A DNA stretch of 63,559 nucleotides, the filler included, from Sphacelaria rigidula (Eukaryota): NCBI GenBank assembly GCA_964200075.2. It is 11 parts of 11 records of this genome, joined end to end, with 100 filler letters (N's around TTAATTAATTAA, not from the genome) between each part and the next. Parts side by side here need not be neighbours in the genome. Positions count along the whole stretch, not along the records: positions 34,725 to 40,411 come from CAXNAA020025245.1; 10 more parts are not named here. The stretch is one strand, 5' to 3'. The number at the start of each line of letters is the position of its first letter. Positions within the stretch are counted from its first letter, which is position 1. Position numbers and translations under genes: made by a program. The notes beneath the pieces are model-generated. The model did not search any database. It worked only from the letters and a program-made list of their open reading frames with translations, and was not told the DNA's origin. Positions 1,255-63,559 of the stretch are shown in pieces.

Positions 1255-3420
1255 ATGCCCCCGATCCGTGCAGAGCATGGTCTATCCTGGCGAAAAAGCA
1301 ACGGAAATGTGTCCGGCTCCTCCGGCATGGGCGACGGCGGCGGGGAAGAGCGTGCCAAACAACCGAGGCGTGCCAGCGGAGTTTCAAGACGTCACAGTCC
1401 CAGCCCCTCCCGTACCCCGAGTCCTAACAACCAACAAGTACCCTCGGTGACCGGCATGCCCGTACATGTTGCTGGGCATGGGCACGTCTTTGGGCATAGT
1501 GGCACCCGCCGCAGCCCATCTTCGAAGGTCTCAGGGAACAGTGCCAACGGCAGTGCGCGCGTGGGGGCAGGGGTAGGAGGGAGCGCGGGGGGTGCAGTAT
1601 TTGGCGCCGATGGTGGCGGATCTTCTTCCCGCGAAAAACGACGAGGTAGCCCAGATTCGGCACGCAAGGGCTATGTTCATGTTGGAGGGCACGCGTCGCA
1701 GCGAACGCTCGGCGGCAAGAGCCCTGCGTTCAGCCCACCGCTCAAGTCTTCTTCTGCAAGAGGCTCTTCCTCCAATGGGGTTTCGTCGTCATGGGGGGTG
1801 TCTTCGCCCACGGCCGGGATTGGGATGGCCGCCGCTAGTCGAGGGCATTCCTCCCCGAACTCGCTTGGCAGGGACAGGAGGGAAGAAAAAAATGAAGGGC
1901 AACCCTTGATGGCGCCACCGCTTCCCGCTGCCTTGTCTGCTGCTGCCGGCCTGGGATCGATGTCTGCTGCCGCCGCTGCCGCTGCCGCCGCCGCGGTTGC
2001 TGCTGCTGATGCTGTGAACGGTATCGGAGGATTCGTCATGAGGCCGCAAGAGGCAGAGGCGAGAGAAATGACCCCGCTTGATCGTGTGTTCCTGGAGCAG
2101 CCCCACGAGGGAAGGAAGGACGTGGAGGATGATGATCTGCATCTTTGTAACGAGATACAGCGGCATTTGCAGTCGAGGGTGCAGTCCCAGCTCATGGAGG
2201 CTACTAATCGCAATGCGTCCGCCGTAAGCGGCCTTGCTGGCGGCGGTTTGGGAGCAGGAGCCGGAGGGGGAGGGGGTCGAGGGTCGGGTGGCGGAGGAGG
2301 GGGCAATGTATCCAGCGCGCGATCTAGGGCGATCAACCACTTCGGAGCGGGTGTACAGCAGTCGATGAACATCGGAGTGTCGGGCTCGCCCGCCTTTGTT
2401 GATCAAGAGATAGAGCTTATCAACGAGGACCGCGGCTGCTTTTCGCCAGATTCCGTACTTACTGGTGTGGGTAGCGATCCTAGCGCGTTCATCACGGCCG
2501 CACCGCACGCCCGACGCGGAGGCGGCGGTGGCATCAACAACAGTGGCAGTGCCGGTGCTGGCGGCGTAAACACGCAACCGGCCTCCGGTACGGTGCCCAC
2601 CGGATACGCTCCACCTGTGTCTATGAACATCGGAGGCGGGGCCGACCTGCTCGATGATCCGGACAACGTCGGCTCGGCGGGTGTGCCTCCTGTCTCTCCG
2701 TCTAGCGGCGGTGGTCCGGCTCAAGGATTTGTGCTGGACTCGGTGGGCAGCTCGGTCGACTTTCTCCTGGATTCGAACGACTCGGCGCCCGGCCGGGGCG
2801 GCGGCGGCGCTCGAGAAGCTTCCCGGATAGGTTCTGAAGGGGACGTGCAGATGGGCGAGGCGTCGGACGACGGGCAGCTGCGGAAGGTGGTGAACGGGTT
2901 GGACGCGATGGATCTCGACGACGTAGAAAACGCCCTCGCCCTGCTCACGGCACAGAAGCAAAGGATCATCGCCAAGCAGCATGCCGGCGCTGCAGCGGCG
3001 GCGGCTGCTCACGCCGAAGCGCAAGCCGTCGCGACCCTCGTGCCGCCGCAACCACCACCAGCACTATCCAGCAACGGCAGCTGCGGAGGCGCCAACGGGG
3101 GGACAAGTTCGTCGAGTAGCCGAACCGGGGGCGGTGGCGGAAAGCAGAGGCGGTTCAGCGGGCGGAGCCGGCACAGCGGGGGCGACGGGCACTCGCCGTC
3201 GGCGGGGGGAAGGTTTGAAGCGTTCGGGGGCTCCGGTGGCGGTGTTCGAGGTGCTCCCGTTTTTTCCCGAGCGCCGCGGGGGCAAGGGCGGCCGCCGCCG
3301 GTGCCGGGGCACTTGTCGGCGTCGACGGCGGCCATGCGGCGTAGCTCTCCCGGGGATATTGCCAGTCTAGCGGAGCTGGATAGTTATTTGGAACACCATC
3401 ATCGACGACTCGTAGAACAG
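1255..3420 (+). CDS. Large coding exon of an unknown G/S/A-rich low-complexity protein (partial gene)
   Basis: The frame is open for 728 codons and is GC-rich relative to its flanks. There is an in-frame stop at 1198-1200 upstream of ATG 1255, and a probable donor CAG|GTGTGG at 3420/3421. Short helical islands (DLHLCNEIQRHLQSRVQSQL; SLAELDSYLEHHHRRLVEQ) are present but I recognise no family. Confidence 0.75.
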
Positions 3421-5516
3421 GTGTGGGTTTATTTGGAATAGGCGTTATTGTTCAGCGTTTATATAAACACACAAATATATGTTTCGCTTCCCCACTGGTT
3501 GTCGGTGTGTTCAAGTCGGCGACCACGAGGGCAAGGCTTTTGCTGTGCCAAGTCCTGACCCCCTGTTGTATTGAAGTGTTGTATTGAGGGGTATCGCCGC
3601 TCGAGGTGTCCTTTTCGCAGACGAAATATTGATTTATGCAAGTTGGAAAGGCACCGCAGGCTAACGCCTCAAGTCAGGAAGTTGCCAAGCTGGTCTGTAA
3701 TATAAAAACTGTGGACGGGTCCAATGTTGACCCTTTGGTGCAATCACGAACTCCCTTCGCTTCAAAACGCGGCGTGCGGCAATCTCGTTCGATCTAGGCT
3801 TGGCATTACGCAGTGCAAAAAAGGTAAAACGTACTCTAAAGCACTTGTACGAATTAACAAGTGCCATGTTTTCATTTTCAGTCAAGTGTAGTTTTGTTTA
3901 GTCTTAGCACGGACATGAGAAGTGTTCATGTCTCGCTCCTGCACAGCTCATAGGTGAGAGTTCATGGTTTGATATTGCAGCATGGCCAAATAGTGCGTTC
4001 CCGATGGATGTGCTGCAACCTGCCTCCACAGTCTTTCTGGTTTTGTTTTTTCTTTTCTGCATGTTCGTTATTTTGCACGACTGTCCTTCTTGCCTCAAGC
4101 AAGCTACCAATCCATCAGCTAATCATGAAGAGCCGTCATTGATAATCGATCCTAGTGCAGGTGGTACAGAAACGCTGAAGCTCGTTTGTCTCACCCATCT
4201 GTTGCGACTCAGCGTAGAGTGAATCCCCGAAATTCCTGACCTTATACTGCGGGTCGTCCCAGCGCTCGGGAAAAATCACGTATGCGGCATATGTGTCGAA
4301 AGTATCTTGTTTGTGCAAGAGTTGGGGCAGCTTCTACCGCTGTTACGTTTTGCTGTATGCAACATGTCCATTGTTGGAACCTTGAACCTCCCGGCGCTAG
4401 AGTCATCGTCGGGGATTTTATTCTCTGACGAGCTTGAAACACCTTCAAGATCAAATCATGCTGGTGCCATCGTTATACTCGCCACTGTATCGCTTCTGCC
4501 CCCCTACCGCTCTATTCCGTTCTTTCACTTCGAAAAAAAAAGTACAACGCAGTACGGCAGATGGTCGGACGCTTGGAGCAACGTAGTATTTCAGCATATT
4601 TCCTTTTGCCCTTTCAATCGAAGAACGTATAGCTGGGTATATAAGTACGGCAGACAGTCAGGCGCGAAACAAGAAGAAGAGTGGGTATATGGTGGTGGTG
4701 GTGGTGTTTTTTGTTGTTATTGCTGCCCCCTTTCTTTCCTTTCTGAGGCCGTTGCTTCTGTCGTTTTTCTGTTCCTTTTTATTTTATTTATTATTCTGTT
4801 CTATTTTTGCTGCTCCTGACCACGGGTTGGATTGTTGCAATCAGCTAATGTGAGATAATCAATCAATCAATCAATACAGATTCTTTCACGTTCATCACCC
4901 AATATTGTGTCATCAGCAACTGCCCTTCGCAATACCTACCCAGTAGTTGCATACATGTCAACACACCGACCGCCATGGACAGCTGAAGAGCGTGACAGCC
5001 GGATTTGTGTTGAAGGCCAAAGTGTTAGCTTAGCGCTTAGCACCCGTCATATTGTTTCGAGATCGAAATTGCGAACTCCAAGCCCAATTTTCACCCAATC
5101 TCCACATGCTTCAAATTTTGATGATCGCCATCAGCTCGGGAATCTTACGGAAAATATGTATGTGTGAACACGGTGACTACGGGGGTCGAATTATACCCCA
5201 AACCGTGATGTTTCTGTGATGGAGGTTCTGGCGTCGTCTAATGTCCACTCATGATACGAATGAAACACCCAGGGAGCCTCGTGATGGTTTACCTTATATC
5301 TGCTGTAAAGAAGCTCCGATCGTCCCCAAACTTGGCTTTTCCGTAGGTATTGATGCTCGGGCCGGATGTTATGGCACACAGATTTTTAGCCCACGGATTG
5401 TTCACGTCTATGACGTTTGACCCACTTTTTGACCCCCAAGCAGAGAAAATCGCCAACACACGTCTGGGACTCTTTGCATCACCCCATAGAGAGGAGAGCT
5501 TAGCCCACTTTTCAGA

Positions 5517-7475: not shown

Positions 7476-9522
7476 GTTGGTTCTTTTTTTAGTATTGGTG
7501 TTTTCTTGTCGCCTTCCATTTCCTCTTCATCTCTTTTTTTTCTTCTGATTTTCCCTCCCTGTCTGTTCGTTTCCCCGGTTCTTCTCCCATCTTTTTTAGC
7601 TTTTCAACTTTACGACCGTACTCCCCTGCTCCTGTCAGCACGGTCGTATTTACCACGTAGTGCTGCTTACACACCACAGGATGGTCTGTACACGGCTACA
7701 CGCAGTCGTTCGGATGTATACTTGATACGCGACGAATCAGGGTGCCCAGCGTGCGTTCGATTCCCAGAGCCCCAGAGCGTACCATGCAGCTCCACCGTGT
7801 TGTGCGCCCTCTATTTACGAGACCGTGGTGAACACAAACACTTTATTACGTGTATTTTGGTGTGTTGGGGTGCCACGACGGTAGACCCGCCTGATCCTCT
7901 GACTTTGTTTGGGTCATCAGGGCTGCAGACCTCTGTGAAGCGAGAGCGCTCAGCACTGCACTGAGCGCTGACACTTTAATAGCTGCCAGAGCCGCCGTAT
8001 TCCGTATGCTTTGGGGATGAACTCTCAGCGAATTGATTGCAATGTACACAAATTCCAGAGTCTGCGTTTTCACGGTAACTCACGCCTACGGCCTTTTACC
8101 CGATGGGGCCGTGAAGTGGCCATGATACATGACCCACTTACTTTTTCGTCGTTGCGTCTTCTCCGAAGAACGGTCGTTTCGGAGTATAGAATGAAGTGCG
8201 GCTTGCAAAGCTCTCCACGCGGGGAAGCAGCGGCATCTCATGCTTTTTGTCTTGTAGCAATCCTTGATGCAGAATCGAATACCGGGCCCTGCTTGAGTGA
8301 TGATTGACTGACTGTCACACTTTAACTGACCCCCCCAGGGATCCGCTCGTGGTCACATGATACCTGTGTGTTCGTCTTTGCTTGTCGGCTCTCAGACCGT
8401 GAGCAGGGTGTATAAAAGGCGGTATGAAAAGAAAAGTGCCGAAAACGAAGAGACGTCAAGAAAGGAAGCCAGTCTATCATGCTGTGCTGCGGCGGGCACG
8501 AAAGTGTGTGTATGTGACGAAACGCTCTCTATTTGCACCCGTACATGGAAGTGACCATTCGTGTTTTACCCTTGGAGCAGCTGCCCTATTTTTGTTTCGC
8601 AGTGCGCGTGCGGGGGTAGAAAAGCTTGTGCGCGTGTGCGCCAGATCTACAGTACCTCCCACGCATGTTGTTTTTCATCATACATATTATGTTATGATTG
8701 CAAGATGGTCAAAGATAGCTGAGGCTTCATCTGCGTCCGTGGCCTTATTTTTTGTCCGGCATCGGCATCTTTCTTGAAGCCCTGGTCGACACGTTATTTT
8801 GTTTTGTCTGCGGATCAGTACCCAGTTTTTAGCCTTGCGTTGCTTCGCCGTTCTGTTCTGTGTATTCTTGTCCTTCATTTGTAATTCTGGCTTCCTTTTC
8901 ATCGGCTTCCTCCCGCGATTGCTTCTGTCTCCGTTTTTTTGCACCTTTGATATGTATGTTTTCGTAGCCGCCATTGAAATCGTACCGACTCGGTTAATGT
9001 GTGGCAATCAATGAACCAATTCAGCAATGAACAAATGGGGGAGGCACCGAGGGTTGCAGATGTTGAGAGTCCGGTCGCGGTTCACCGTACTGCGTACAGC
9101 ACCTGCTCTCTGCACTCACCATTGATGCCGTACATTGTTGTATATATTCAAGGTCCGTTCTCCTCACCAGCGAATAGGTGTTTCGAGTTCTGGCTTACGT
9201 TTTTGCACGTCACTCATCACGTTGAGATCTTGACCACGTCGGCAGGTTGTGGCTTCATTACTAGGATCGTATGCCGTAGGCTTTGTGTCGTTGTGTGGAG
9301 TACGTGAAGAGCAGATGGATATCCTCGGTCCTGACGTGCACCCCCCTCCGATCCTACGGAGTATGTGATTCCCCCAAACTCTTGACTGTTTCGCACCGCA
9401 ACTGTGCAAAGCTACGATATCCGCGCGCTCGTTTATTGCAGTTGTTGTTCATATATGAATTTGTTGTTTCAATTCGTGTGCGATATTTATTTGTCGTTGT
9501 ACTGTACTGTACCATACTGCAG

Positions 9523-19580: not shown

Positions 19581-20855
19581 CGAGAGAGGGAGGGGCGGAC
19601 GGACGGACGGAGACGGAGAGGGAAGAATAAGACTCCATAAGTGATCAAACCCCAAGGACAAGGGACGGCAAAGTAGGTACGAACTAGCGAAACAGGGAAA
19701 ACCGCAAGACCACCGGCCGAGGATCAAATCAACAACCGGTGGGAACAGACAAGGATGCACCAGTTTCCGTGTTAGCTCAGCTTCCCCCATTCATCCCTGG
19801 CGGGGTACAAATCGGTCCATTCTCTCGGTTACTTTCCATCCTGAAGTCTTCATCAGTTGTTGCTGTTGTTGTGCTGGCGGCGGCAGCTCTCTGATTGGCG
19901 ACTCTCGACGTAGCAGCCTCTCCCGTTTGTGGCGGAGGACTCGCGTTTGTCTTCCTGTCGCCACGTGTGCTCGAACTCTTCTACCCATTTCTCGACTCCA
20001 AGATGTTATTTGCCCATGTTCTTGTCGCAGTGACCTAGTCGTAGACGTCGTTAACGCCCACACCGACTGGAATGTGATATACTACGGTTTCAAAAGTACC
20101 ACCAGCGGTAGAGACACACCCGGTGCCCTGCCCTGCAGACCGTTATGCCACGTTGATTGCAAGCCCAGATTTACCGCGGCACCAGGCCCAAAGGTACTAG
20201 GCCGCGTCAGATGCGCGGGGATATGAATACGAGTGTGTTCTCATTTCGGAAGTACCCCCGTATATTGCGGGGAGGAATGGGGACAGTTCGGTTTTGCTTA
20301 CCTCTTGCAGCACGTCGCCACTCTTTTTATTGCGAGAGTAAATGTTGTCACGGTCATATACTGCGTGGTAGTAATAGCAGATGAGCGTGGATCGAGAAAT
20401 CGCGTCACGACACAGAGTTAATGTGCACTAAGTTTGCATCAGCTTACACGGGTTTTTCTTGTGTCAGTAGTGGTCGAAGTGCGTCGGGTGCGGTGCTTGC
20501 ACATGAATGCGGTATCTTCCTTGGCTTCATCTTATGTATATTTTTTCATAATGATAGGATAGCCAATGCACTGGCTGGGGTCTCTCAGTATGAGTGCCAG
20601 GGGATACCATGGTGCCAACCCACCAAGCTCCCACGTGGACAACATCACACAGACCTAGCTATTCATCATGAACCATAACAGAGTAGGTTCATTCATGTAT
20701 ACTGCCGATCGGGAACTCACGTGTTTCATAGCGTCATGTTATATCTACAAGCAGCTCTCTTACTCAGTACCGCCGCGGCGCAGCCAAAGGAGCAGAGCGT
20801 AGTGATGGCCCAGAGTAGAGACCAAGGCAGACCAATAACTGATTGAGGTGGGTCG

Positions 20856-21601: not shown

Positions 21602-22671
21602 ATTTTCGGGCTACCTCATTGTTGCGGTTGGTGTGTACACCTTTCGTCCACGTGAAAATTTGATTCGCCAATATGCTTCGCGAATCTACGGCACCTACTA
21701 GATAGGAGTGACCTGTAGAGATATTTTGAAATGGAGCAGATTTTGTATGGGGATGGAGTGTCGGTGCGGTATGTCGACGAGAAAGCTGTAATATTTTACA
21801 CGTACTCAATCGACAATTCTTCACTTGAAAACACGGGTTTGTCTGTTAGCACAAGGATGAGGCAAGCATGTTGCAGGATTCCAATCTCGGAGGGCAACAC
21901 CCGCGAGACTATCCAATAACTAGAGGTGGATCCTTCTCTCATACGAGGACATGGAGCTAGCCTGGGCAATGTACCATCCCTTCTTGCCTTGAAATATTGC
22001 GCATAGATTGTAAGCTGTTCGTGGTACCTCGCTTACCCAAGACTGCATATGGTGCGGTGGGGATCAAATTCTAAGACCGACGACTTCACGACTTGGTCCC
22101 GCTCTAGGGGTCGTTATCCTTGGTTTTCGACAGATTACTTTTCCCTTTGAAAACCGTCGTCTGTGTAATACACTCTAGTCTCCTTCAACCCGTGGAATCA
22201 TCATTCCAGAAGTAAGTTGTTATCTCAAACAACACTTCTGACCAGGACATCGAAGTCGTCGAAAGAGCCCCGCTACATACCCATATTTGCTCACATTTTC
22301 CCGCGTTTGAGTGGTCGGACTCCGGACGAATCGTTCATAAAACGCTAATGACCCGTCTGCAACCAGACTGCAGTTTTTGAGAGAGCATCGCGAAGGGTTA
22401 AGCCTGAGTGGGTGTTGACCTGTGGCCACGATTTTAAGGACAGGTCGATCTCACGATCACCTTTCAGCGTGCGACTCAGAGAATGATGTTTACAAGCTAG
22501 AATTTCAGGAATTGCATCTTCAGTCTCCTATTTTTCGAGTTTGCATACTATCGGAGTGAACGCCTAAAACGCTTTATCCATTAACGCGAGAGAGCCTTGC
22601 GTCAGAGGTCTTGAGGTCAAAATTTGGAGGCTTTTGTATTGTTTATTCATGTGAATCTTCCCTCCTCCCAC

Positions 22672-22930
22672 GACTGCCACCCGGCTGGGGATGGTTGTGT
22701 CGGGGTAAGCTAACCCCATCGACGACACAACCAACAAGTAGGTCAAGGTAGCTTGACCTATAGACCAGCATATGTTTCGTGTCAGTGGTAATGCAACACA
22801 CAGTCTAGGCAGTGGGTCAGGCAGACAGTGCTGACGTCCAGGCTCAATCCTGCAACTTCGGAGTTTCGCCCTGTGCTGAGCACCAAATTGAACCCCGCAG
22901 CTGCAGCGTTTTACCCGGCGTTGGGACACT
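22672..22930 (+). mobile_element. 5' end of an RTE-like LINE (structured leader plus tandem PAM2-like motifs)
   Basis: Aligns with 36420-36680(-). Encodes SRLNPATSEFRP and TKLNPAAAAFYP. Confidence 0.8.
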
Positions 22931-22934
22931 GTCA

Positions 22935-23050
22935 CGGAGACCTGCCAGGAACAAGAAAGATATATAGCAGTCGTCGAAAGGAGGAGGAAGTAGATAGAAT
23001 GAACTGCCTCTGTGGCAAAGCAATAGAGAGCAGAAGTCATATAGTGGCAG
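22935..23050 (+). mobile_element. Family A LINE fragment (C-terminal zinc-knuckle region)
   Basis: DLPGTRKIYSSRRKEEEVDRMNCLCGKAIESRSHIVA matches the translation of 39160-39270(-). Confidence 0.85.
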
Positions 23051-32082: not shown

Positions 32083-33706
32083 CACGGTCCGGATGAGAAA
32101 AATCGTGACTCGACTCATATTCAACATTTGGACGAATCCATCATACGATTCGCGAAGAAGTTGTGATTTGCACACGTTTTCAGGTTGTGATTCGATCGAC
32201 ACTACTTTGGGTGTACACATTTCCAGCTCGTGATTCGTGCGGTACACCGTTGAAGGTACACATATCCTACATTTCCATTTGTGTGGTGTGAATCTCAGGC
32301 AAATGGTTCCCTATTTTTATTCATTCAGCATGAGTCATGGGCACACGTTACCTGCCTTCCATTCAAAGAAGGCGAAACAATCGTATGTGGTTCCCGATCT
32401 CCGTTCATGCAGGATGGATCATACCTACATGTTTCCCACCCTCCACTCATACAAGGTGAACCAAGCGTACATGCTTCCTGATTTCACTCATGCAGCATGA
32501 ACCATACGTACATGTTCCCTTCCTTTCATTCATACGAAATGGATCAAGTGTACATGATTCCCACTTTTCATCTATGCAACGTGAATCATGCGTACATGTT
32601 CTCCACCTTCTGTTCATATATTTATATAAATCATGAGAACATGTTGCTCCCTACCTGTGATTTCATGGGGCGCGACTCTTCGGTGGTGCGGCCCTTTTGC
32701 AGATAAGTCAGGCGAATGCGAGCGTACAGGTCGCTGACCTCGTAATAGCCGAATTCGCAAGAAATCCAATTTCAATTTTTGTACTCACACGTAGCACATC
32801 AGCTAATGTACAACGCACGCGTCTGCGTGCCCAGAGCAGTTTTTCTAGCAAGGTGTTTTCCTGTGCCATGCTATTCACAGCCTTTGTGGTTTCATGTGGT
32901 GTTCTGTAGTGCAGTTGAGCTGAACGTGCCGTATAGAATACCACGAACACTTGAGAAAACACAGCACCAGCACGAGTCGTCTTTTCATGCTTTTGGGAGT
33001 TTTCGCGAAACCTCCGGCAGTGCACACTGCAGTCCGCGGACAGTACGGTACCGCATGGCGCAGCACGCATCTGTGCGCCATAAGTGATTCTTCTAGCTGT
33101 TTGTTGTACTGTGATCCATACAGCATGAATCACCTGATCTATGTACACGTTTTACACCCTGCGTTCGTGAGCATGAATCCTAGATACATGTTCCCCACCC
33201 TCCATTCATTAGAGGTCAATCAAGCGTATATGCATCTCCCTCTTCATCCATGCAGCATAGGAATCAGTAGCACTCGTTCCTCACCTTCCATTTATACTAG
33301 GTGAACCACAGGTACATGGTTTCCAATTTCCGCTTATGCAGCATGAATCCTGTGCACATGTTCTTCGTCTTCGGTCTATACGAGAATCAAGCGTAAATTT
33401 TCCCTAATTCCCGTTCGTGCTAACATGTACATGTTCCCCACCATCGATTCATACGAAATAAATCAAGAATATATGTTTCCCGCCCACGAATCATACAGGA
33501 ATTGCGATTCATACGTACGTTGCACTCTTGATTCGTCTGACACAACTTGGAGTGCACACATTCCCAGTTCGTGATTCGTGCGGTTTGATTTTGAACGCAT
33601 GACCTCACCATCCGTGATTCATACCAGAGGATTCTTTGGTACATGATTCGCGTTCAACATTTCATAGCGAGTCAACTCATATGAACTATGATTCGTCGGA
33701 ACCGTG
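32083..33706. mobile_element. Putative non-autonomous element with CACGG...CCGTG termini carrying a 42-bp repeat array
   Basis: The left end CACGGTCCGGATGA matches the reverse complement of the right end, CACGGTTCCGACGA, at 11/14 positions. No clear TSD. Confidence 0.45.
32254..33500 (+). repeat. Diverged ~42-bp tandem array, split by an insertion at ~32661-33110
   Basis: Consensus is approximately GTACATGTTYCCCACCTTCCATTCATRCRRSRTGAATCAWGC, with about 10 units before and about 9 after the insertion. Confidence 0.85.
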
Positions 33707-34724: not shown

Positions 34725-36680
34725 CAGGTACACAAGTGTGTTCATACTTCACCTGTAGGAGCTGGATCGCATAGAAACTGATCTGTCCGACGTGTGTAAT
34801 CTTTGCCTCGCAATATCGTTCTCTGCTTGTCATTCCGACAGTCTCCACCCTGCTTTGAGATGACTGAACCATCCTATCATGTCATCAAGAATATACACCT
34901 CCAACTCTCCAGCCAACCTCCAGGTACCGTCCACCCCGGGTTGGATCACCTCTCAAGAGCTATTTTGCACGCTGCTCGCAGTGTGCACCATGCGGGCTTC
35001 TCGCTCGATAGTCCCAGTCGCACCGTTGAGCTTGCCTTGTCCCCTTCATTCCCGGCCTGTTCGAACTCCGTTCGGATGCCATCATCCTCAAACCATCCCG
35101 ATGAACACGGCTTTCGGGTCAGGCGGGGTACCACCTTTTCAACTGCACTCAGGAGTTAATCGGCAAAGTTCGCAGACAGTGTACCGAAGGTATCGCCAGG
35201 TCTATCTTGTTTGAACCCGTTGATGATGAGCTGGGTAAGTTGTTCACACTGTTGGCGTCAGATATTATTGCTCGCCTATCGATCGGTTTGCACCCAATGA
35301 AAACTCGCCTGGGTCTCTTCTGTGCAAAGCGACCGAGAAACCACACTGAGGCGCATGCGATATTGTGGTCAGAGCTCGGCGAGTGGATTGGCTGAAGGTG
35401 GACGGTGACATTGCGAACAAGCCTGCGCTGATCTTGCCATGTCAGGATATAGCCAATGCGTTTGTTGTCCGCGGGACGGTTTGCAATACCGTTGAACGTA
35501 CGCAATGTGCTTCCCTTGGAGGTGGAAAGAATGCGTTGCCAAGGGCAAGCCTGTTGTCACCTGCACGTTGTAGTAGAGACGTTCCCTTCCTGTAGTTGGT
35601 TCGGGAGTCCCGGCCGTATGGCCCCACCATTTTACATTTCTCCTCACCTCTTCGTACCCTAGTCCTAGCGTCGGGGCTCATTATAATAACGAGGTGGTGT
35701 TTGTTGGGAACTCGGTTCACAAATCCTGTCCAACTCAGTCCAGAACATGTCTCTCGTTTCTGTCGACTTTGATGTGACTGTAGGGACGTAGGCAATGACA
35801 AACGTAGCAGCATTTTATTTGCCTGAGAAGTTGGAAGTCATCGACATAAGCCGTTCGTTGATGAGTGTCTGAGTTGACGTCGCCTTGTTCATCACTGACT
35901 CCTTCACCGCCAACTACCATCTAGCCCTTTCCTTTCCCCCTCCCTCCACGCGGCAGAAGACACGATATCCCGCCGCAATAAACTCGGTACGGCCCGTTCT
36001 TCTGGTCTCCTGGACTCCGGTGACGCCACATCTCACCGCTTGACATTATTGCAGAACTACCTCAGCATGGCCAGCTGCGTTCTTTCCCGTGAGGGCCAAG
36101 TGTACGGACTACAAGTAGCCACTTTGAGCTCCCCTGCACGCGACCCAGCTCCAACCTTCTCCACACGTCTTCCTCTTTCATCTGCCCTGCTTTTCGGTCC
36201 GCTTCACCTTCGTATTTCACGCGCGAGATCTTGTTCCCGTTCGTACTCTGATTCTTGTTTGGCACGCAGGTCGGTCACGGTACTTGCCTTGCGCTGTAAT
36301 CTCACGGGGAGGGTGCACCCCTCCCAGTCCGCGTCGTTCACTAGCTCCAGTCCACCGAATCTGCTACCTACTACCCACACGCGTCTCATCTCTCCATCAA
36401 TGTGCTTACCGTGATGAAGTCCTGACCCCGGGTAACCTCTGCAGCCGTGGGGTTTTAGTTTGGTTCTCACTACAGGGTGAAATTCCGCAGCTGCAGGATT
36501 GAGCCTGGAGGCCACCACTGTCGGGATGACCCACTCACTGCCTCGACTTGTGTGTTGCATCTCCACTGACACGAAACACGGACTAGTCTGTAGGACGAGT
36601 CACTCTTCCCCACGCCTCCGTTGTGTCGTGGGGTGGGGTTAGCTTACCTCGACACAACCGTCCCCAATCGGGCGACGGCC
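34725..36680 (-). mobile_element. Decayed RTE-like LINE: 5' leader, N-terminal extension and apurinic endonuclease (APE) domain
   Basis: Frame-broken APE motifs occur in order: ELKVAT.VRTL (~36130), GVQETRR, DART, GPYGRD..LALGNAFF, RIGYILT..RRLVRNVTV, SDHN. The RT would lie beyond the contig end. Clade assignment is by motif style only. Confidence 0.85.
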
Positions 36681-38491
36681 GTATATACCAGACGGAACAT
36701 GGAATAAGCCAAGAAAAACGTCCAACACTGAGGGTACCAATGCGGCCGAGGAGAGCAGCAGGAAGATGGCAGAACGTGTAGACAGATATGTCCCGGGTTA
36801 AACATCACAAAAAAGTGGCAGGGATCCCACCATCCCCTCATGTCCTTCTTTCTCTTGATAATTCCTTCCTTCCTTTGTACCCCTTACCCGATGTGGCGTG
36901 TTCCCATGTGGTGCTTTTCATGGGATATCAAGCAAATTCGTTCATATGGCTGTCTCTAAAATTTCTGTGTACGGCGGGGGTGTACCTGGCCGATGAAAAC
37001 CCGACCTGGAATATTCCAGCATGGCAACAACGTGGGGGTACCATGTCTTTGTATTGGCATTAATGTACAAGTAACGGGTACACCTTGGTTCTTGAGACCC
37101 CCCACGTGCACGCCCATGGGTGGGGAAAGGACAACGCCGACGTAACTCCTGGTGGGTGAATACGCCCCGGGGGCCTCGTAGAGGTACAAGGATATAAGCG
37201 TGCGATTCCTATTACTGTGGTTGGTGATCTTTGGTCTCTGAGTTTGGCTCTACTTCTGTTTTGCTTTGCATGTCGAGTGAGGACGTTGGCGTCTGACTCC
37301 AAAAGTGCGATGGTTCGCCTACGGCGCGGGATGATATGGGTTGGCGGTACTTTTTCTTGTATCGCGGCTGTGTTAGTCTCTCACGGAATGTCATTTTAGT
37401 TTTTATTTGGTTTCCTTATAGCTTATGATGGGGTAGTGAGCCTGTGGCCACGGAAGGTGTCCGCATCAGATCCTCAGCACAGGAATAGAAGTACTGCGCA
37501 GAGACAGGAAAGGTTTTTCATGTCAAGACAACAGCAACAACAACAACAATGACATAGTTTGCCTACGCAACTGGTTGCAGTTATCATTCCGTTTTGCCTT
37601 TATAACCAAGATACTTTTTTTCATTTGGGATGCGGAATAATTGTAAAAAGTGGGGAAAGAAAAAAGACATCTCCAGTCGAGACTTGAAAACAAAAAATGA
37701 GCAACACCCATGAACTATTTCCATCAGAATCTACACATACACACACGTGTTTAAAACTTCGAGCCACGACTCGCGAGTCAGTCGAGGAAGATCCGAAAAC
37801 TACATACTGTGGTAGAGAGCTTCGAACAACACGATTTCGTCTGCAAACCGGCATAAGAATGCACCATTTGGTACAATTTCGTTGTTTCCTGGTCGACAAG
37901 CGACTCGCAGCGCACACCTGGCCACGACAGCATTACTTGTCTGTTTCTCGGCCACCAAATACATGTGTTCGATCGTGTTTGTCTGTGCTATAAAAGAGGT
38001 GTTATCTCGAGAAAAGATCAGGTCGTCAAACACCATCTCATGCTTGCTTGGTGGGACCGGCTCGTCGCACCTTGATGCGTCATCTCCTGCACCGCTGCTC
38101 CCGTGCTGCTGCCGTCGGCATGACCCTGGTGCACCGTTTTTCTTGCTGCCGTGGAATCTGCATGCCCCTGATGCGCAGCTGCTCGTGATGGTAGCGACGG
38201 AGGCGGTGGCGAAGCTGCTGCTGTGCCGGCAATCGACAGATAACCCGGGACGCCGTTTTTCATCCCCTGTGGGCGCTTTTCTTGAGGAGAGGGCAAAGCG
38301 ATCGCCACCTTCTCCGTTCACGAGTATACGGGAGGTAGAGGCGAACAGGGGAGGGGGGGAGGGGATGTTTTGGTACTGTGACTTCGACGATGTTGCTTGA
38401 ATATCCTCCCGCATCAGACGGTTATATGGTCACGAGACAGTGATGTGATCCTGTTTTTATTACTCTCGCACACACCCCTTACCCCGCACAC

Positions 38492-40411: not shown

Positions 40412-43400
40412 NNNNNNNNNNNNNNNNNNNNNNNNNNNNNNNNNNNNNNNNNNNNTTAATTAATTAANNNNNNNNNNNNNNNNNNNNNNNNNNNNNNNNN
40501 NNNNNNNNNNNTGACCCCAAACCTAGCCCCCCCCCCTCTACTCAACGACCCATGACGCGCCCCCATACTAAAAACAGTATACTAGTGAACCCCCACACTA
40601 AAACCAAGGCAATTCTCATAATAGTTCTCAAATATATCCCAGAAAACCCGCCAATATTCGACACAATATTTCGCAGTAATTACGAATCGGATTCAACTTT
40701 CTTTTTTTAGAGGTATCCTCAAATCCATAGCTTTTCAACAAGCCTATCGGTAGTATCGTGAATGACTAGGTTGGCGAGATATGATTTGCACCCCATAAGG
40801 ACCTTTACTTATGGCACAGAGGAAGTATAACAGTACAGTACAGTACACTGTAGCAGTGTTATAAAAAGCGCGTGCGGAGGTGCGGCAGCGCAGATATTTA
40901 GGCGAAATCCGGCGAAGCGCAGGTGCTGGGAGTAATAATCTGCGGCTTGCCGCCGAATTTTTTTTCGGAGCGCACTTTATCGCCGGTAGGCGACAAAAAT
41001 TCTGCGGCCCATTTCTTTTTGCCGGAGGCGCAAAAACATTTTTAGGGGTTTATTTTGGTTTCGCCTGAGGGCGGATGAGATTTTTTTTCAGACACAGCAA
41101 TCATATGCTTCCGTTATGATCCTTCTTCCTGTTACTTGCGTTTCAATGTGAACAAAATTAACCCAAACCAACCAAAAACACGGCAAAAACACCTAAATCC
41201 CAAAATTTGCCGCTCCGGGGCCGCATGTCGCCTTCGGCTCCAACCTGCGCAAGCGCAGGTGGAGCCTTCGGAGAATTTATAACCCTGCACTGTAGCACGC
41301 CTCTCCGACTGAAGCAGCAGCTGCCGCTGCATACTCCCTTGCACGTTCTGGGCAATTCTCAGCCACCGAGATCAACTGCCTATATACCGCTTCTTAATCC
41401 CCGCCCACCACATACATGTTGACTGCACCCTGCAAGTCATCGCCAGAGGGATAAGTAGAACTCATAACAGTAGATCCTTTTGTCTTTCCACAGCCCACCT
41501 GGGTTTAGGGCGTGGTGAAAATGACCGCATGGTAGCATGTACACTCCTGCCCGGCTTTTCCGGTCGACCCTGTGTTGGTGTAAATTACTACGTTTTAGTA
41601 GGGAATTGATACCCAAAAAATCCACCGGAAAACTCGGGAACGGTGTACTGAGTGCAAGTGATATCATGTAACCAAGCTCCGACCGCCCTGCGCTTGGAAA
41701 CCTGCGAAGTCTTATCTGGGCCAGGGATAAGGTCCCCACACGATGTCTACAGTGGCCAACACCCCCAGCACTGGTCGTTCGGGTCTGGTCGATAAATTTC
41801 CCCTCGCCGTGATTGGGCAGGTCGCTCGAAGACTTGTGTTTTTACTATTTCACTAACACAGGGTCAACCCTGTGTTAGTGGGGGGTCGGTCCCGAAAGGG
41901 TTCACGGGTAAAAGTGCGTAAAACAGACAGTAGACCGCGTGAACCAAATCTTTCAGCCATATCACTGGCGGGGCCGGAGCAACTCCAGCCCCACGCGTTC
42001 ATGGGGATTGATCCTCTTCACAAATTATCAGTGCTTCATACAACAAAACACATGAAAACTTCTCTGGGACTGCGGGTATGAATGACGTGCAACAGTGATG
42101 ATAATCATAGATTTTTGCCGAAATTATTGGCCCCGCCCGTTCGTGGGAATTGTTCCCCTGTATAAATTATTATTATTCCAAACAATAAATCACATGATAA
42201 CTTCTTCAAGGCTGCGCGGGTATTAAGGATGTGTAAAAGTGTTGGCCAATAGTCATAGTTAAAGCCGAAGTTATTTTATACCGTACCAGCTTCAATCATT
42301 GAAATTATGATAATATAACGAATGATGATAACAATCATCGTAGATAGTAGCAATTTTGATGACAACACCGATGATACTTATCCATCGAGACATGAGGATA
42401 ATTTGCGCATTTCGACCTGTTGTTCCCGCTGGTGTTATACGAGCTCTACTGCCCGGCGGGTATGAACCTTGTCAAACAGTAGTTTGACGGACTTGGGCTC
42501 CAATGAATGTATGTTCATCGTTGATATCACTGGATTTGAGTTTGAACAACGAGAATCGGATCTTTTTTGGGGCTCGACAGTCCCGTTTGCTTGCTCCTAG
42601 CGTGCCCCCAACACGTTTTCGTCCATATCGGCGCTGTAGCCGGTAGCGTTGGGTTACAATTTACCTATAGTTGATATTACTTGATTTGAGTCTCGATGAC
42701 AAGAATCGGATATTCAGTGGGGCTTGATTGTCCCGTGTACCTTGACCAATATTTTATTACATGTGTGCTTCTCTTTACCGGCGACACTGTCGTGCGCTTA
42801 CACAGCTATTCGGCGATATCTTAGTCAGCGATATCAAAGGCTCCGGCGGCAAGCTACTACAGAAAGCGTACCTAAGGCCCGGAGCGGCGTTTCGGAACTG
42901 AAACTACTTCTCTCATTAGTCGATCGCTTTTCACTCCTCATCGTATCCTCGACTCTCAATCTAACGAGAAAATTGTTAATATTGAAACGCGATTTTGCTG
43001 CTCAAATTTGCTGCTCCTAGCGTGCGCAGAACGCGTTCTCGTACGCGTCGGCGCCACCGCTGATTAGAGGTCTACCAATGCCACACTTTACCTAGGAAAC
43101 TCTGTGCATCCCCCTTGCCCTAGGGTTTTCGGTATGACTTGTATTGGGGTTGGGGTTACGATAAGCGGCAGTTATAAATATGTCAAACCACGAATATGAT
43201 GTAGCCAAAGTTCGGTTAACCCAGTCCGGTTACCCCACCTCGCGAGGTTGATGAGCAGGTGGTGCGGTCGACGATCATGTGCTTTGGATCATATTTTAGC
43301 CAATGTACCCGTAGACTAAATCGGCTGTACCACCTCATGTTTTTTACGATGCTGATGGTACCACAATCCATACTGACACACGAAGGATTGCACGTGGTCT

Positions 43401-45478: not shown

Positions 45479-45895
45479 CCGCGACAAAGATCTGAACACA
45501 AACGGAAAAATGAGTCACTCACGCCAACACGGGGGTCGGTGTCGTGGACATCAACCATGTTGAGAAGGGTACAGTCGGTCGCATCCTCCCGAACGCAGTC
45601 GGACGCACATGCGTGGTAGTTCACGTATCGTGCTTCTTCACCTTCTGCATCGCACGAGTAAGGGGCATTAACGGCGCAATGATGCAGTGAACGCTGTGCC
45701 CTTAGCGCCCGTTGCTCGTGCGATGCAGAGGGTGGAGAAACACGTTACGTAAACTACCACGCGTGTGCGTCCGACTGCGTTTGGAAGGAGGCGACAGACC
45801 GTACCCTGCTCAACATGGTTCAAGTCCACAACACTGACACCCGTGTTGGCGTGAATTACTCATTTTCCCCGCTTGTGTTCAGATCTGTGTCCCGG
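45479..45895. ncRNA. ~417-nt fold-back hairpin, candidate pre-miRNA or hairpin-RNA locus
   Basis: The ~205-bp arms differ by about 30 substitutions and almost no indels, with a loop of a few nt. The inverted repeat is certain; RNA function is inferred. Confidence 0.5.
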
Positions 45896-46639: not shown

Positions 46640-47020
46640 ACGTCGGTGTATGGCAGAGCAGTGTGGTGCCTCGCTTCGTTGTGTTTGTTCATGGATGAGA
46701 GGGTTCATGCCCGAACTAATACGGCAGTAGTAGATGCGCCGCAATCTGTTCCTTTTCCACGGCCTTTTGCTCTCAACGGCTGGGTGCGAGTGAGGTTCTG
46801 CGCGAGTCCTTTTCCACCGAAGTCATGTGGTAGAGGCCGGCCGTTCTTATTCTTTTATTTTTTTCTGAGTCTACTCTGCTTTTTTGTTCTCTTTTCTCTG
46901 CTTGTTCTTCTCCTTTCCTTCAGAGAGTGCTTCAGTCATGATTTATCACGGGCACGTGTGTCATGTGGCCACGGCTGGACCCTTGGGAAGTTCATTGAAA
47001 GTACGACAATCATTCAGTAA
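46640..47020 (+). repeat. Interspersed repeat family D
   Basis: Matches the reverse complement of 18977-19400. Confidence 0.75.
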
Positions 47021-47289
47021 AAAATCAAATGGTTCCGACCTATTTGGTTCCCCCTCCACCAAGCTACGTTGACCGAAAAAGGTACGTCAACTAGTAAGGC
47101 CCACGGGCGAATAAGGTACATATGTAAGTAGAGTACGCTAGGGAATGACGTGCAGCAGGAGTTACAGGCTCATCCGCGGAAACGCATGAAAGAGTGCGCA
47201 CTGACGGTCTCTCGAGAACTCTTTGGAACTATTACTTAAAATTTCACACATCCATCCGTTTGCCCAGGACGAAAATGAATATATGAGTC

Positions 47290-58519: not shown

Positions 58520-61500
58520 GACCTGCTACTACTAGTCAACGATATCTTTCCAGAACAAAATTCATTACACAACAGCATTCTCGAAGGCTGCACAACAACT
58601 CCAATAGTTTCCTATTGCCCCGCATAATGTCCCGCCTGTTACTTAGTGAACAAACCTTCGTATCTTAGCTTGATGCTACTGAACATTGACTCACATATGA
58701 TATGCAACACGAAACTCTCGACACCCCTCCCCAATGGAAGTAGCACTCAGGAAAAGTAAAGAAATGCGGACCGATGAATATTCTAGGCCCACTTATGCAA
58801 ACGCATGTTTCCATTTCTGCACATTCTCTTCAATTTACCCTTGGATTCTCAATCTCAACCCTTTCTACGTTCTCATTTCTTCAAAACACCGTCGTGATCC
58901 AACCACACGCTAAAAAGTACGCATCATACCACCTCCCTTGTTCGCGTCCTTATTTTAAGTCCTAAAGGTCTTGATTATGTGCAGCAGATGCAGGTGACGT
59001 TGCTTGCCCGAGCATTTCGTCCCAATGTCGGCGTTGTTCGTGGTCATGAAGGGTGACCCTCCGCTTCTTGATGAGTTAGCGAATGAAGAAGTAGCGCAAT
59101 GCCACAAGCTTGGTCCGTCCACTGTAGGTGCTGTTACCGGCAACGTGAAGTGTTGAGGTGTCGTCGATGTGAACCGGAACACTGTGAAATGCCTCGCCGA
59201 ATCCCAACTCCAGCATCATCTTAGAACGGAACCCAGCCTCCTTGATTGCTAGCGCTGCCACCACAAGCTCAGCTTCTATTGTCGACTGAGCAGGTGGACC
59301 CTGTATTCCGACCTTGAAACTCACCGGAGCGTTCGAGAGCATGACGATATACGTGGACATCGATTTCCCGTTATCAGGGTTGTTCCCTCAGTTGGCGTCC
59401 GAAAACGCCGTGAGCTGGAATCCAACCTTCCTGTACGTGATATCGAAATTAGCACTCCGCGCAAGGTAGCGTAGAAGATGTTACGCAGCACCCATGTGTG
59501 CTATTGATGATCTTGACATCGCTCTCGCAAGCTGGTTGACAGGAAAATGGATATCATACCGGGTCACTTGTGCTAGATACATTAACGAGCCGGTGATCGC
59601 CTGGTATCGCTGTGTTGCCGCCGGATTCAGAAGCTGCTGTTCCGGTTGATTTGATGACAGCTCTGCTCCCGTTCCTGGTGTACTCAGCGGATTGCAGTCC
59701 CTTATGCCTCACTTCTCCAGGATCGATTTGGTGTAGTTCTCCTGGCTGATCGTGAGCGTCCCATTCTCGCAATCTCGGGTGACTCTCATTCCGAGTGCAA
59801 GCGACACGTCTCCCATGTCCGTCATTTTGAAACGAAACACGAGCGTTTTCTTGAGCATCTATAGTACTGCCACGTCCCCTCCAACAAGGAGCACATCGTC
59901 CACGTAGAGGGTGAGAAGCGCGACAACCTTCCTCTTTCCGAGAGCGGTGATGACGGTGTCACCCCGGGAGCTACCAGCCCTAATGCCGTCGTGGTCGTCG
60001 TTGTCAGTGAAGGCGTAGATGCAGGGATCTGAAGCGAGAGAGGTGGAACTGATCTCCAGAAAATTGTTCATGGTGTTCCACCAATTCCGTGGCGACTGAC
60101 GGAGGCCATATAACGACTTCCGGAGCTTGATCACGAGAAGAACTCTCGTCACGAGATCGTTCTCCTCATAGCCCGGGGCCATCTTGACGTACACTTCCTC
60201 TTCAACGGGCGCGTTGAAACATGCCGTCTGCACGTCCAGCTACCAGAGTTCCCAGTCCATCTCGGCAGCCGCTGCAAGCACCATACGGATGCTCTGTAGC
60301 CTACAGAGGGAAGCGAAGGTGCTGCCGCAGTCAATGTCTGGTCTTTGTCCCCATCCTTGGACGACGAGCCTTCCCTTGCATGTGTTGTCGGCTTTAACCA
60401 CATACACCCACCGGGGTCCGATGGCGATCATCCCCGCAGGAATCGCCGTGAAGGGTACAAGCGTGAAGACATTACTAAAACGGAAGCTTTCTACCTCCTT
60501 GTCTGATGCTGCCTTTCATTGCTTCGCCGCTGGCAGTCGCATTGTCTCTTGAAAGGTGTTCGGCACTATGACCACTTTCTCCCCCTCCGAACAACTTCGA
60601 ATTCGGATGTTTGCGGCAGAGTACGCATACTCCAGAAAGGAAACTCCATCTTTGAGCGATGTCTCGCATATTTGTCCTGGTGTAGAAGTTGGCCAAAGTC
60701 TCCAGGCGCTTAAGCTCGCGGGCTCGAGCGCTGCTCGTGCCTGCGCCGATTATGATGTTTATCGGGGCTTGTGGGTTAGCCCGCGTGCTGACACGTGAAG
60801 AATCCGCTGGGGGTGACGGGGTTGTAGCTGGAGGTAAACCTTCAGTGACTCCCCCTTCTGGGGAGGCTCCAGTTGGGACCTCTCTCGATGAAGATCCGAT
60901 AAGGTCGTTGACGCGGTCCGTCACGTCGCGTAGATCTCCGTGTTGTTTGCTTTTGCTTAGAACGCATACGTCGCAGGGTGATAACGTTCCATCGATATCA
61001 GAGCCTCCCACCTTCCGAATTACATTCAGGCTCTTGATGCCGACGTGACCAAGTCGGCGATGTCAGAGGTTTGCGCCTGTGCTGACGTGCATAGCCACTC
61101 CAGGTTGCTGCTCCGCGAGGCCGCTCAGCTTCATGCGAAACGTGTAGAGGTCTTGGTCATTGATCGACTGTGTAATGCGTGAGAGGACTGCGTGTTTAGG
61201 GGGCCGCGTTGTAGTTCGAAACATCTCAGGATCGATATTTTCAGAAGAAATCCGGCCAGTCCCTGCAGGGACCACGCCCCTGACCCTGACCCCAACCCTA
61301 AGCCTAATCCTAACCCTAACCATGAGGCTGTTCAAATTCCGATGCGGTCCTCTAAGCACGCGGTCCTCCACGCATTACAGATTGTTCCAGGGGAAGCACG
61401 AACGGTGAAGTCTCTAGTCGGGGATCATATTGATCAAAGATGGCGATGGTGCCTTGCTTGGTCGCCATTTTCACGGATAACAGATGACACCCTAGTCGGG

Positions 61501-62720
61501 GACGACGGAGCAAGAGAGGGCGACATGGTGCGCCTTCTCTTGTCTGTCGGTGACTGTACCATGAATGGTGGTAGTTGCGACTGCTTCCACTTTATTTTGT
61601 CCCCCTGTTATAATTTTGAACGGTCGTTCGAGGGCCGTGAACGAACTCGCCCGTGCTAAAACACCCGACTCGAGATTGATGTCCAAGTAATGACCGGTCG
61701 CGCCACTGTCCAACAGCCAGGTTACGGAGTTGGTGTCGTTGGCTGTCCGAGCCGTTGGTGCCGCCGCAATGAAGGCTGCGCCTGTACCCCCACCGAAGGC
61801 ACCGAAGAGTTCAAATATATGTTTTGGGAGTCCGGCATGCTCTGGTGGGGTAGACGCGCCGAAGGAAAACACAGGAGGAGCCGACTCCGTCATCACAGGT
61901 TGCTGGGGTCCTCCGACTGTTCCGGACGAATTGCTGTTTGCAGTCGTCGCCGCGGCAGGCGGCAGGATGAACGACCGGGACATGCTCACATTGGCGATGT
62001 TGGCGTTTCCATTCGTTGCTGCTTTCTCTTGTTGTGCCTTGCACTCAGCATCGTTGTGTGTTGTTGTTCTGTGATACGAGCACCATTTTGATGCTTCGTT
62101 ACTTCCCTTTTTCTTGTCTGCTTTTCGACGTCTCTGTGTTGGGTTACTCTGCCGTGTCCGACTTCACCTGTTGTTCGGGCGTTCACGTTGACAGTGCTCA
62201 AACCCCTTGCAAAGGTGACACTGGATACGAAATGTCGTAGCCTGCATGGCCGATCCAGGTCCGGCCACGGTTGGTCTAGTTGACGAACCAAAATTCCGAC
62301 CATTGTACGAGTTGCACATTGCGGTGTGAATGTTGTCGAGACCGAAGTCGCGCTCGGTGTAGCATTTCGTGCGCACGAAGTCATACTCGAGGGTTACCGC
62401 CTTGAGGATAATGTCCTCGTAGCGATCGTCATGCATTTTATCCCCGAGGCTCTCCATACGCGGATGAATTTTGTCCATGTCTTGGAAGAAATTTTCGGGG
62501 TCCTCGCCCGGTTGCATCGTGCGGCTAACCAGCTGAGCGTGAATTGCCCGCCTAGCCGCTTTGGTGTTGCCGTCGAACTTCTCGACCAGGGCCTTCCACG
62601 CACCATGCCCATCACCGACCCGCAGACCGTCGAGGTCTTCATCCTCTGTGTACAAGAACCGCCGGATGGTCGCAGCAGTGAAGGTGCTCTTATTGTTCGT
62701 AAATGTAGGTTGAATACGGC
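58520..62720 (-). mobile_element. Decayed Ty1/Copia LTR retrotransposon lacking the integrase core
   Basis: Domain order is gag (GHGAWKALVEKF; knuckle CHLCKGFEH), protease WLLDSGATGHY (~61700), pre-integrase HRRLGH..CDVC (~61060-60960), RT (KGRLVVQG, KSLYGLRQSPRNW, YVDDVL) and RNase H (FSDAN*G, STIEAE). A PPT GGGGAGGGG is followed by TG at 58723 (3' LTR start). There are many stops and frameshifts; the 5' LTR is not seen and the LTR end is approximate. Confidence 0.93.
61171..61379. mobile_element. MITE with TGT...ACA termini, ~45-bp TIRs, 5-bp TSD and an internal telomere-like array, nested in the Copia element
   Basis: TGTAATGCGTG...CACGCATTACA with flanks GACTG / GATTG. Removing it restores the Copia frame (LPLEQ|SINDQDLY). 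Confidence 0.88.
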
Positions 62721-62773
62721 CACTATGCGGTCGGAACTGGTGGCGGTGTAACTGATCATGCAGAGAAAAAATA

Positions 62774-63180
62774 AACTACGCAACGCTGTACGCTTCGAGG
62801 CTTATCAATGCTTGACGCGCAATTGCGAATTCCCAGACTGTACCGCCTTCCTGCGCGCACACGTTTAAACTGTAGCTTGTACAGACTGCAGCTGATGCAG
62901 GTTTCGTCCGCAGGGATGATGAACTACGCAAGGCTGTACGCTTCGAGGTTTACCTATTCTCGACCCGTAAGTGCGCATTTTCTGACTGTGCCGCCTTCCT
63001 GCCCTCACAGGTTTTCACTGTACCTCGTACAGACCACAGCTGGTGCAGGTTTTGTCCGCAGAGATTATGAACTACGCAAGGCTGTACGCTTCGAGGCTTA
63101 CCGATACTCGATGCGTAAATGTTAATTCCTTGACCGTGACGCCTTCCTGCGCGCACAGGTATAAACTGTAGCTCGTACAG
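62774..63180. repeat. 148-bp tandem repeat, about 2.75 units
   Basis: AACTACGCAASGCTGTACGCTTCGAGG starts at 62774, 62922 and 63070. Confidence 0.92.
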
Positions 63181-63559
63181 CGTGCCGCCTTGACTCCAGA
63201 TGCGTAGAGTACAATCCGCGGTTGCCCCAACTCACTTGTAGTGTCTGTGTTGTCCCAGGTATTCAGCTCCTCTGTAGAACTCTTCAGAACTCTGTAGAAC
63301 TGGTCGATGGCATCTCCCCGGCAAGCTCTTCTTTAGAAGCTCTCGGCATTTGCGTCTCACAGACAATCGAGGCTCACAACCTATTGAGGAATACGGTAGT
63401 CGTGGAGACCGTTGTACTCCTCTTGGCAGGTGACTGCAGAGGTTGGCGCATGCAGCTTCATGCTGACCTCGTCTCAGGAATGAGCACCGCAGGTGACTGA
63501 ACACGAACGAATATATATTACTACTTGTCCATGAATCATCCTACGATTGGGGGGGGGGG

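Follow-up and report, generated by a model that had tools for sequence, protein, structure and literature searches.

Can a retrotransposon protein begin with the kind of peptide that host proteins present to poly(A)-binding protein (PABP)? The question is raised by a window of 63,559 nucleotides from Sphacelaria rigidula (GCA_964200075.2), which consists of small contigs joined by N spacers and comes from a fragmented source assembly of 244 Mb. A preliminary description of this DNA proposed tandem PAM2 motifs at the N-terminus of an RTE-like LINE protein. In our analysis both motifs do head the open reading frame (ORF) of the element family, although each of the two copies in the window scores below the Pfam cut-off for PAM2. 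The point bears on cis-preference, the long-standing question of how a LINE protein comes to select the mRNA that encodes it. A separable PABP-binding-type motif on a single-ORF LINE makes a PABP-based account of cis-preference directly testable.

The window copies and the reading frame of the family

Copy A, on the minus strand, is a decayed RTE-type LINE with both PAM2-like motifs. By blastn it retains the 5' 1.8 kb of the element, comprising 5' UTR, leader and endonuclease (34839–36681), with 72% identity to the near-full-length copy L074 over this span (36681–34839) and 78% identity to the majority sequence of 31 copies (36681–35162). The alignment stops about 110 nt short of the contig boundary (34725), before the reverse transcriptase (RT), and there are many stops along the copy. 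The 5' UTR of about 150 nt, which includes an upstream ATG, was placed at 36528–36681 (−) from conservation among copies, mapped by alignment; at its 5' end, column conservation rises from ~0.45 to 0.87. Motif 1, LNPAAAEFHP, lies at 36474–36503 (−; family residues 9–18) and was identified by translation, Pfam and alignment. Motif 2 (family residues 24–33) was placed by alignment at 36428–36458 (−), where two indels, one of +1 and one of −1, disrupt it and confirm the frameshift described earlier. An Arg/Lys-rich leader (36132–36427, −; copy alignment) runs from the motifs to an APE-like endonuclease domain (35251–36131, −) that is itself decayed by stops and frameshifts. This domain was recognized by tblastn and by Pfam on the family copy L029, and the related protein P0002 aligns to copy A in tblastn at 46% over 302 aa (36099–35251). 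The distance from motif 2 to the endonuclease start at 36131 is 297 nt, in agreement with the original estimate of ~300 bp.

Copy B (22660–22938, +), delimited by alignment, is an isolated 5' fragment of ~280 nt containing UTR, upstream ORF and both motifs. Over 279 nt it shares 88% identity with the majority sequence, and homology stops at 22938. Translation and the copy alignment place an upstream ORF of the form MQHTV-stop at 22791–22808 (+), while translation and Pfam place motif 1, LNPATSEFRP, at 22843–22872 (+) and motif 2, LNPAAAAFYP, at 22888–22917 (+). Both motifs are in one frame, as had been stated for this second copy, but no endonuclease follows position 22938 and we reject copy B as a full element. 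The in-frame start codon of the family is mutated in both window copies, to ATC in copy A (36525–36527, −; copy alignment) and to AGG in copy B (22819–22821).

PAM2 was the sole Pfam family match for copy A (12.5 bits, E 0.12) and for copy B (17.4 bits, E 0.0034), below the 20-bit cut-off in each case. A six-frame scan of the window with a motif pattern, shaped after relatives had been seen, gave 2 matches, whereas 100 shuffles averaged 0.03 (max 1). Short fragments related to the 3' part of copy A's RTE family are also present in the window at 19890–20055 (−), 8293–8360 (−) and 46892–47028 (+).

A DNA search of the alga's own genome with copy A, in which 40 of 165 candidates were scored and all 40 matched, yielded at least 40 matches, namely copy A and a further 39 at 70–77%. 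We aligned 30 loci together with copy B (31 copies), all retrieved by DNA likeness to copy A and not by the motif. The majority reading of these copies is a UTR of ~150 nt followed by one frame that runs from an ATG through the motifs into the endonuclease. In this family ORF, motif 1 (residues 9–18) and motif 2 (residues 24–33) are followed by an Arg/Lys-rich stretch, the endonuclease from about residue 130, and RT. The motifs and the first endonuclease motif lie in one frame in locus L033, with RT further downstream on the same contig, and the motif and first endonuclease motif of L073 are likewise in one frame. The concern that the motif residues might be unconserved or untranslated is therefore not borne out, the family frame being continuous with the endonuclease. 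The Pfam scan that had been recommended gives a divided result: L033 scores 24.2 bits for PAM2 (two stretches), above the 20-bit cut-off, as do several family copies in the own-genome PAM2 search, whereas copies A and B and most single-motif relatives are below the cut-off or have no match.

The start codon is not the conserved ATG (MQHT) that was first proposed. The frame opened by the MQHT ATG closes within 5 codons in 20 of the 31 copies; it continues into the motif frame in just two, L020 and copy A, and in copy A this is due to 5 inserted bases that bring the ATG at 36558–36560 (−; copy alignment) into frame. We therefore reject it as the family start codon; in most copies it opens a five-codon upstream ORF. 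The in-frame family ATG lies 28 nt further downstream and is an ATG in 24/31 copies. In most copies ~10 nt separate the end of the upstream ORF (MQHTV-stop type) from the main ATG, and this ORF could modulate how the element is translated. Folding of the 5' UTR is modestly more stable than that of shuffled sequences (z −1.91, 6/200).

From its position before a low-complexity basic leader that contains no Pfam domain, we infer that the PAM2-like N-terminal region is disordered. An Atlas search with the leader returned no usable match. The basic run directly before the endonuclease is common to all aligned relatives, and is likely to serve in RNA binding and/or nuclear import.

In its other properties the element is an ordinary RTE-type LINE, just as the motif is an ordinary PAM2-like peptide. 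It has a single ORF in which an APE-like endonuclease precedes RT, the arrangement of the RTE clade. Pfam detects Exo_endo_phos in L029 and RVT_1 downstream in L074, which spans ~4.3 kb. Intact relatives (1163–1240 aa) contain endonuclease and RT domains and gave no Pfam match to RNase H. There is no separate ORF1, only the ~150-nt UTR with its five-codon upstream ORF ahead of the ORF. In all 20 loci fetched, a conserved terminus leads into (CAAT)n-type repeats at the 3' end; L094 contains a further 3' end whose repeats are followed by A8. First-look genome candidates numbered 2270 with the 3' end and 165 with the 5' end, a comparison that is indicative only, as the query lengths differ. A tandem-repeat 3' tail and mostly 5'-truncated copies are again characteristic of the RTE clade. 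The RTE hallmarks applied here, other than those found in a published Ectocarpus table, are general background on the clade.

The Ectocarpus elements RTE-1_Ec32 and RTE-2_Ec32 similarly have a single endonuclease-RT ORF, a length of 4.0–4.6 kb and a short tandem-repeat 3' tail, as judged from table rows in the available part of PMC12477816 and not from sequence alignment. Their tail is (CAA)n in those rows, compared to (CAAT)n in the algal LINE studied here. The text of PMC12477816 and its 5 supplements mention neither PAM2 nor PABP.

No target-site duplication was obvious by eye at both ends of L074, a single old copy. A stem-loop before the 3' tail can form, but its stability is no better than that of shuffles (z −0.78 and +1.35) and it was rejected as a candidate feature. 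It should also be noted that in 2/20 loci (L081 and L094) two element 3' ends lie in opposite orientation within one 3-kb locus.

Conservation of the motifs within the family and among relatives

Conservation within the family was measured at 12 core positions, the L, N, P, A, F and P of both motifs, which were set from the PAM2 consensus in the available part of PMC7356810. Family copies share ancestry, so that the within-family statistics are non-independent counts: core positions are changed in 15% of copies compared to 26% for the other residues of 2–33 (permutation p 0.009); replacements common to at least 4 copies occur at 0/12 core positions and 10/20 other positions (Fisher p 0.004); and pN/pS relative to the majority sequence is 0.41 for the core, 0.93 for the other residues of 2–33, 0.63 for the rest of the leader and 0.52 for the endonuclease. 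Between motif 1 and motif 2 there are 6 synonymous changes (7.5 sites) and 3 replacements (22.5 sites). Read in the other frames, the same comparison gives the reverse pattern in 4/5, the fifth (antisense) giving 4 to 3. Motif 1 fits the PAM2 consensus completely, and motif 2 departs from it only in having Ala where the consensus has Glu. Among the 31 decayed copies, the L-N-A-F-P anchors are intact in motif 1 in 15, in motif 2 in 14 and in both in 6. The call for a check on the motif codons is thus answered in favor of the proposal, with conservation above that of the flanks within the family and retention of the motif across related families.

Only one motif is present in the nearest family (P0022, ~58% identical, from a cluster of 2648 members), and the tandem pair is therefore on present comparison a local duplication particular to copy A's family. 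Two motifs are also found in a degenerate database protein, P0196.

Three protein searches, extended to cluster members, gave 43 proteins with a leader of at least 100 residues; leaders of fewer than 100 aa were treated as truncated. Together with a second RTE family from the alga's own genome, these proteins form 20 clusters, 12 of which have the motif. Among the 14 database representatives with a full leader, 11 have the motif within the first 25 residues, and the pattern has no matches in their other 12,188 residues. This cross-family pattern was adjusted after the data had been seen, and the count becomes 9/14 if Ala is required strictly. Left out of the 14 are the own-genome second family (motif present), P0001 (miscalled N-terminus, P0022 family), P0235 (starts inside the motif), P0278 (outside the clade), and P0220 and P0230 (leader placed wrongly, within the endonuclease). 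Two relatives, P0115 and P0129, are annotated as Ectocarpus, and P0129 carries a W-type motif.

In an endonuclease tree, all motif-bearing rows fall within one 19-row clade (99/99) and are spread over several of its branches; the outgroups of this tree are unnamed or loosely named and have long branches, with no named RTE or RTE-X references among them. P0010, P0013 and P0205 are members of the clade that have a full leader and no motif, so the motif is dispensable in some lineages. The distribution fits a motif that was ancestral to the clade and subject to losses, the inner forks of the endonuclease tree being unsettled. By eye, the N-terminus of P0010 is like a decayed form of the motif region of the second RTE family, and a secondary loss is suggested for this protein.

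These comparisons bear on the possibility that the resemblance to PAM2 arose by chance in neutral or non-coding sequence and was then multiplied by transposition. Such an origin could be entertained for a short motif whose two window copies are dead and below the Pfam cut-off. However, the motif holds an in-frame position, divergence between the repeats and between families is biased toward synonymous change, and the motif is retained in proteins that are only ~40–58% identical. We therefore regard chance resemblance as extremely improbable and largely refuted.

PABP as the likely partner and what binding might achieve

The PAM2 consensus, LNxxAxEFxP or LNxxAxx[F/W] in the available part of PMC7356810, is shared by PAIP2, superPAM2, LARP4/4B and eRF3, and the algal motifs resemble all of these. 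A profile of the tandem peptide matched 3 PDB entries in all, the best being the PAM2 of PAIP2 (1JGN_B, E 0.034) and superPAM2 (8SMO_B, E 0.073). An N-terminal motif position, as in the algal LINE, is also seen in LARP4/4B. eRF3 has a motif pair too, but there the two overlap, whereas those of the algal LINE repeat at 15 residues without overlapping. Unlike in the cellular PAM2 and PAM2w ligands, the motif is here carried by a transposon protein.

The RRM exons of the host PABP were located on one contig (C725), and the PABP exon is 85–92% identical to Ascophyllum- and Scytosiphon-labelled proteins. Searches of the fragmented assembly by family, pattern and protein did not recover the exon for the MLLE domain, which is no proof of absence because C725 ends soon after RRM4. 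P0314, a PABP with 97% identity to the host over the RRM4 exon, has a full MLLE (E 6e-32). Compared to human PABPC1, this MLLE is identical at 9/12 of the pocket residues named in the available part of PMC7356810, with the numbering anchored by us. Taking together the three readings below in which binding occurs, we consider it highly probable that the motifs bind the MLLE of PABP.

Five of the 11 motif-bearing relatives have W in place of F, the PAM2w variant that MLLE tolerates according to the available part of PMC7356810. The fact that these F-to-W swaps obey the known PAM2w rule, that the anchors L-N-x-x-A-x-x-F/W and the final P fit the MLLE-binding consensus, and that the best PDB matches are PABP ligands makes it improbable that the motif is kept for some other partner, be it an MLLE protein distinct from PABP or an unrelated signal at the N-terminus, and no more than resembles PAM2. 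Several observations would nevertheless suit another partner. UBR5 also has an MLLE-like domain. Pfam finds no PAM2 match in 9/11 motif-bearing relatives, P0007 and P0009 having weak matches (as does P0166, which is outside the 11). In one subgroup (P0124, P0126) Val replaces the conserved Ala, and a bulkier residue at this position is said to be unfavorable for MLLE in the available part of PMC7356810.

The reading that we prefer, and hold at about even chances, is that the PAM2-like motifs dock on the MLLE of host cytoplasmic PABP and tether the new protein to its own mRNA. Because the motifs are N-terminal and would be the first part of the protein to leave the ribosome, they could meet PABP on the poly(A) tail of the same mRNA during translation. 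This would keep the nascent protein on its own mRNP up to the point at which the 3' end is engaged by the basic region and RT, which would there take hold of the conserved terminus and the (CAAT)n tail for target-primed reverse transcription. Cis-preference would in that case run through MLLE, in parallel with the PIE-RRM1 contact that has been proposed to provide it in human L1 ORF2p. Having two motifs may raise avidity on PABP multimers. Such a tether would require that the element RNA be polyadenylated. Genomic copies end in (CAAT)n and not in poly(A), and PABP would therefore tether the RNA and not supply the priming tail, which qualifies the earlier suggestion that the protein captures the 3' end of its mRNA. 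In this respect, a PAM2-like motif in a LINE with a tail repeat in place of poly(A) separates the idea of PABP as tether from that of poly(A) as primer.

The available part of PMC7617806 reports that PABPC is required for L1 retrotransposition and proposes that it sets cis-preference. The role of PABP that the preliminary description cited from L1 is thus upheld, but the contact in L1 is made through RRM1 and not through MLLE. The two systems are alike in that a LINE endonuclease-RT protein contacts PABP directly, which is only predicted for the algal LINE, and in the co-translational cis-preference proposed (PMC7617806, available part). They differ in that the L1 PIE is an element within the linker (residues 272–297) that binds RRM1, as supported by prediction and mutants in the same part of that source, whereas the algal LINE has a host-type linear motif at residues 9–33 that is a predicted MLLE ligand, and no genomic poly(A) tail. 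PAM2 and MLLE have 0 mentions in PMC7617806.

MLLE binding might instead act on the fate of the mRNA. Host PAM2 ligands are of the eRF3, PAN3 and Tob types, and the element protein could compete with them, block deadenylation, or lift translation past the upstream ORF, in the manner of LARP4/4B. Motif conservation and PDB likeness fit such a role equally well, and a short upstream ORF is present ahead of the start in 20/31 copies. LARP4/4B, which are PAM2w proteins, stabilise mRNA and lengthen poly(A) according to the available part of PMC7356810. The presence of the motif on a Gag-like ORF with a different replication cycle (see below) also fits a general use at the mRNA level. We consider an effect on mRNA fate rather unlikely, as the extreme N-terminal position of the motif in 11/11 motif-bearing relatives suits co-translational capture, and one protein per transcript would titrate abundant PABP inefficiently. 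It should be noted that sequence alone cannot discriminate between cis-capture and an effect on mRNA stability or translation.

A further reading is that MLLE binding mainly localizes the ribonucleoprotein to PABP-rich granules for assembly or storage. L1 ORF2p and PABPC share cytoplasmic puncta, an association that is lost in PIE mutants (PMC7617806, available part), and the Gag-like protein, with its Gln/Pro-rich N-terminus, has the same motif. Granule localization is at the same time compatible with a tether to the element's own mRNA, and as the main function of the motif it seems to us quite improbable.

Other carriers of the motif and further features of the window

Of 91 candidates scored in the own-genome PAM2 search, 49 matched. 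Among the 30 matches fetched, copy A's family accounts for 12, a second RTE family for 4 and an unrelated repeat for 14. The second RTE family (L073:1689–2798 (+), L056, L038, L055 and L058) is divergent from the first, has a single N-terminal PAM2-like motif and ends in a similar (CAAT)n tail. Compared to the two repeats of copy A's family, its motif shows 5.5–10.5 synonymous and 2.5–4 replacement changes. Probable remnants of the second family lie in the window at 42548–43158 and 4711–4874.

An LTR family of Ty3/gypsy order (L072:3340–5469 (+), L098, L105 and L108), with 58 own-genome matches among 78 scored, also has an N-terminal PAM2-like motif, in this case on a Gag-like ORF. This Gln/Pro-rich ORF has LNPQAQPFYP at residues 5–14 and a CCCH-like finger at its end. 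Downstream of it lie RT, RNase H and integrase, ordered as in Ty3/gypsy elements, an arrangement that was pieced together from several copies. Between two subfamilies, the motif codons of the Gag-like ORF have synonymous differences only (4 changes). An Atlas search with this ORF returned only sub-0.9 leads, to zf-CCCH and Retrotrans_gag.

The occurrence of such a motif on an unrelated Gag as well suggests that mobile elements have convergently come to mimic a host motif. We tentatively propose, as something possible though short of probable, that two unrelated retrotransposon orders, represented by several RTE LINE families and by a Ty3/gypsy Gag, independently gained an N-terminal host-type PAM2. 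If so, docking on MLLE would represent a convergent second way to PABP-based cis-preference, alongside the one proposed for human L1, and one that may be general for finding the element's own mRNA even where the tail is a microsatellite. A transplantable tether might also be of interest for the engineering of gene insertion based on retrotransposons.

A search by title and start of abstract found no report of PAM2 in a retrotransposon, though subscription journals, Repbase notes or InterPro architectures may mention PAM2 in passing on retroelement proteins. Within the literature searched, the combination of PAM2 with a LINE, its clade-wide conservation and its recurrence on a Gag appear to be undescribed.

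Several features of the window are separate from the RTE elements. Remnants of a Copia-type Gag (Retrotran_gag_2, E 1e-10) and gag-pre-integrase lie at 60478–62775 (−), and a 148-nt tandem repeat adjoins these Copia-type remnants at 62771–63214. A stop-free frame of 729 codons is found at 1252–3441 (+), where the sequence is GC-rich and long antisense frames overlap it; the frame has no Pfam match at E 0.01. Positions 32308–33498 hold a degenerate tandem array of ~42/84-nt units in two clusters. Finally, there is a long inverted repeat at 45504–45869, with 175-nt arms that are 85% complementary and a 16-nt loop.
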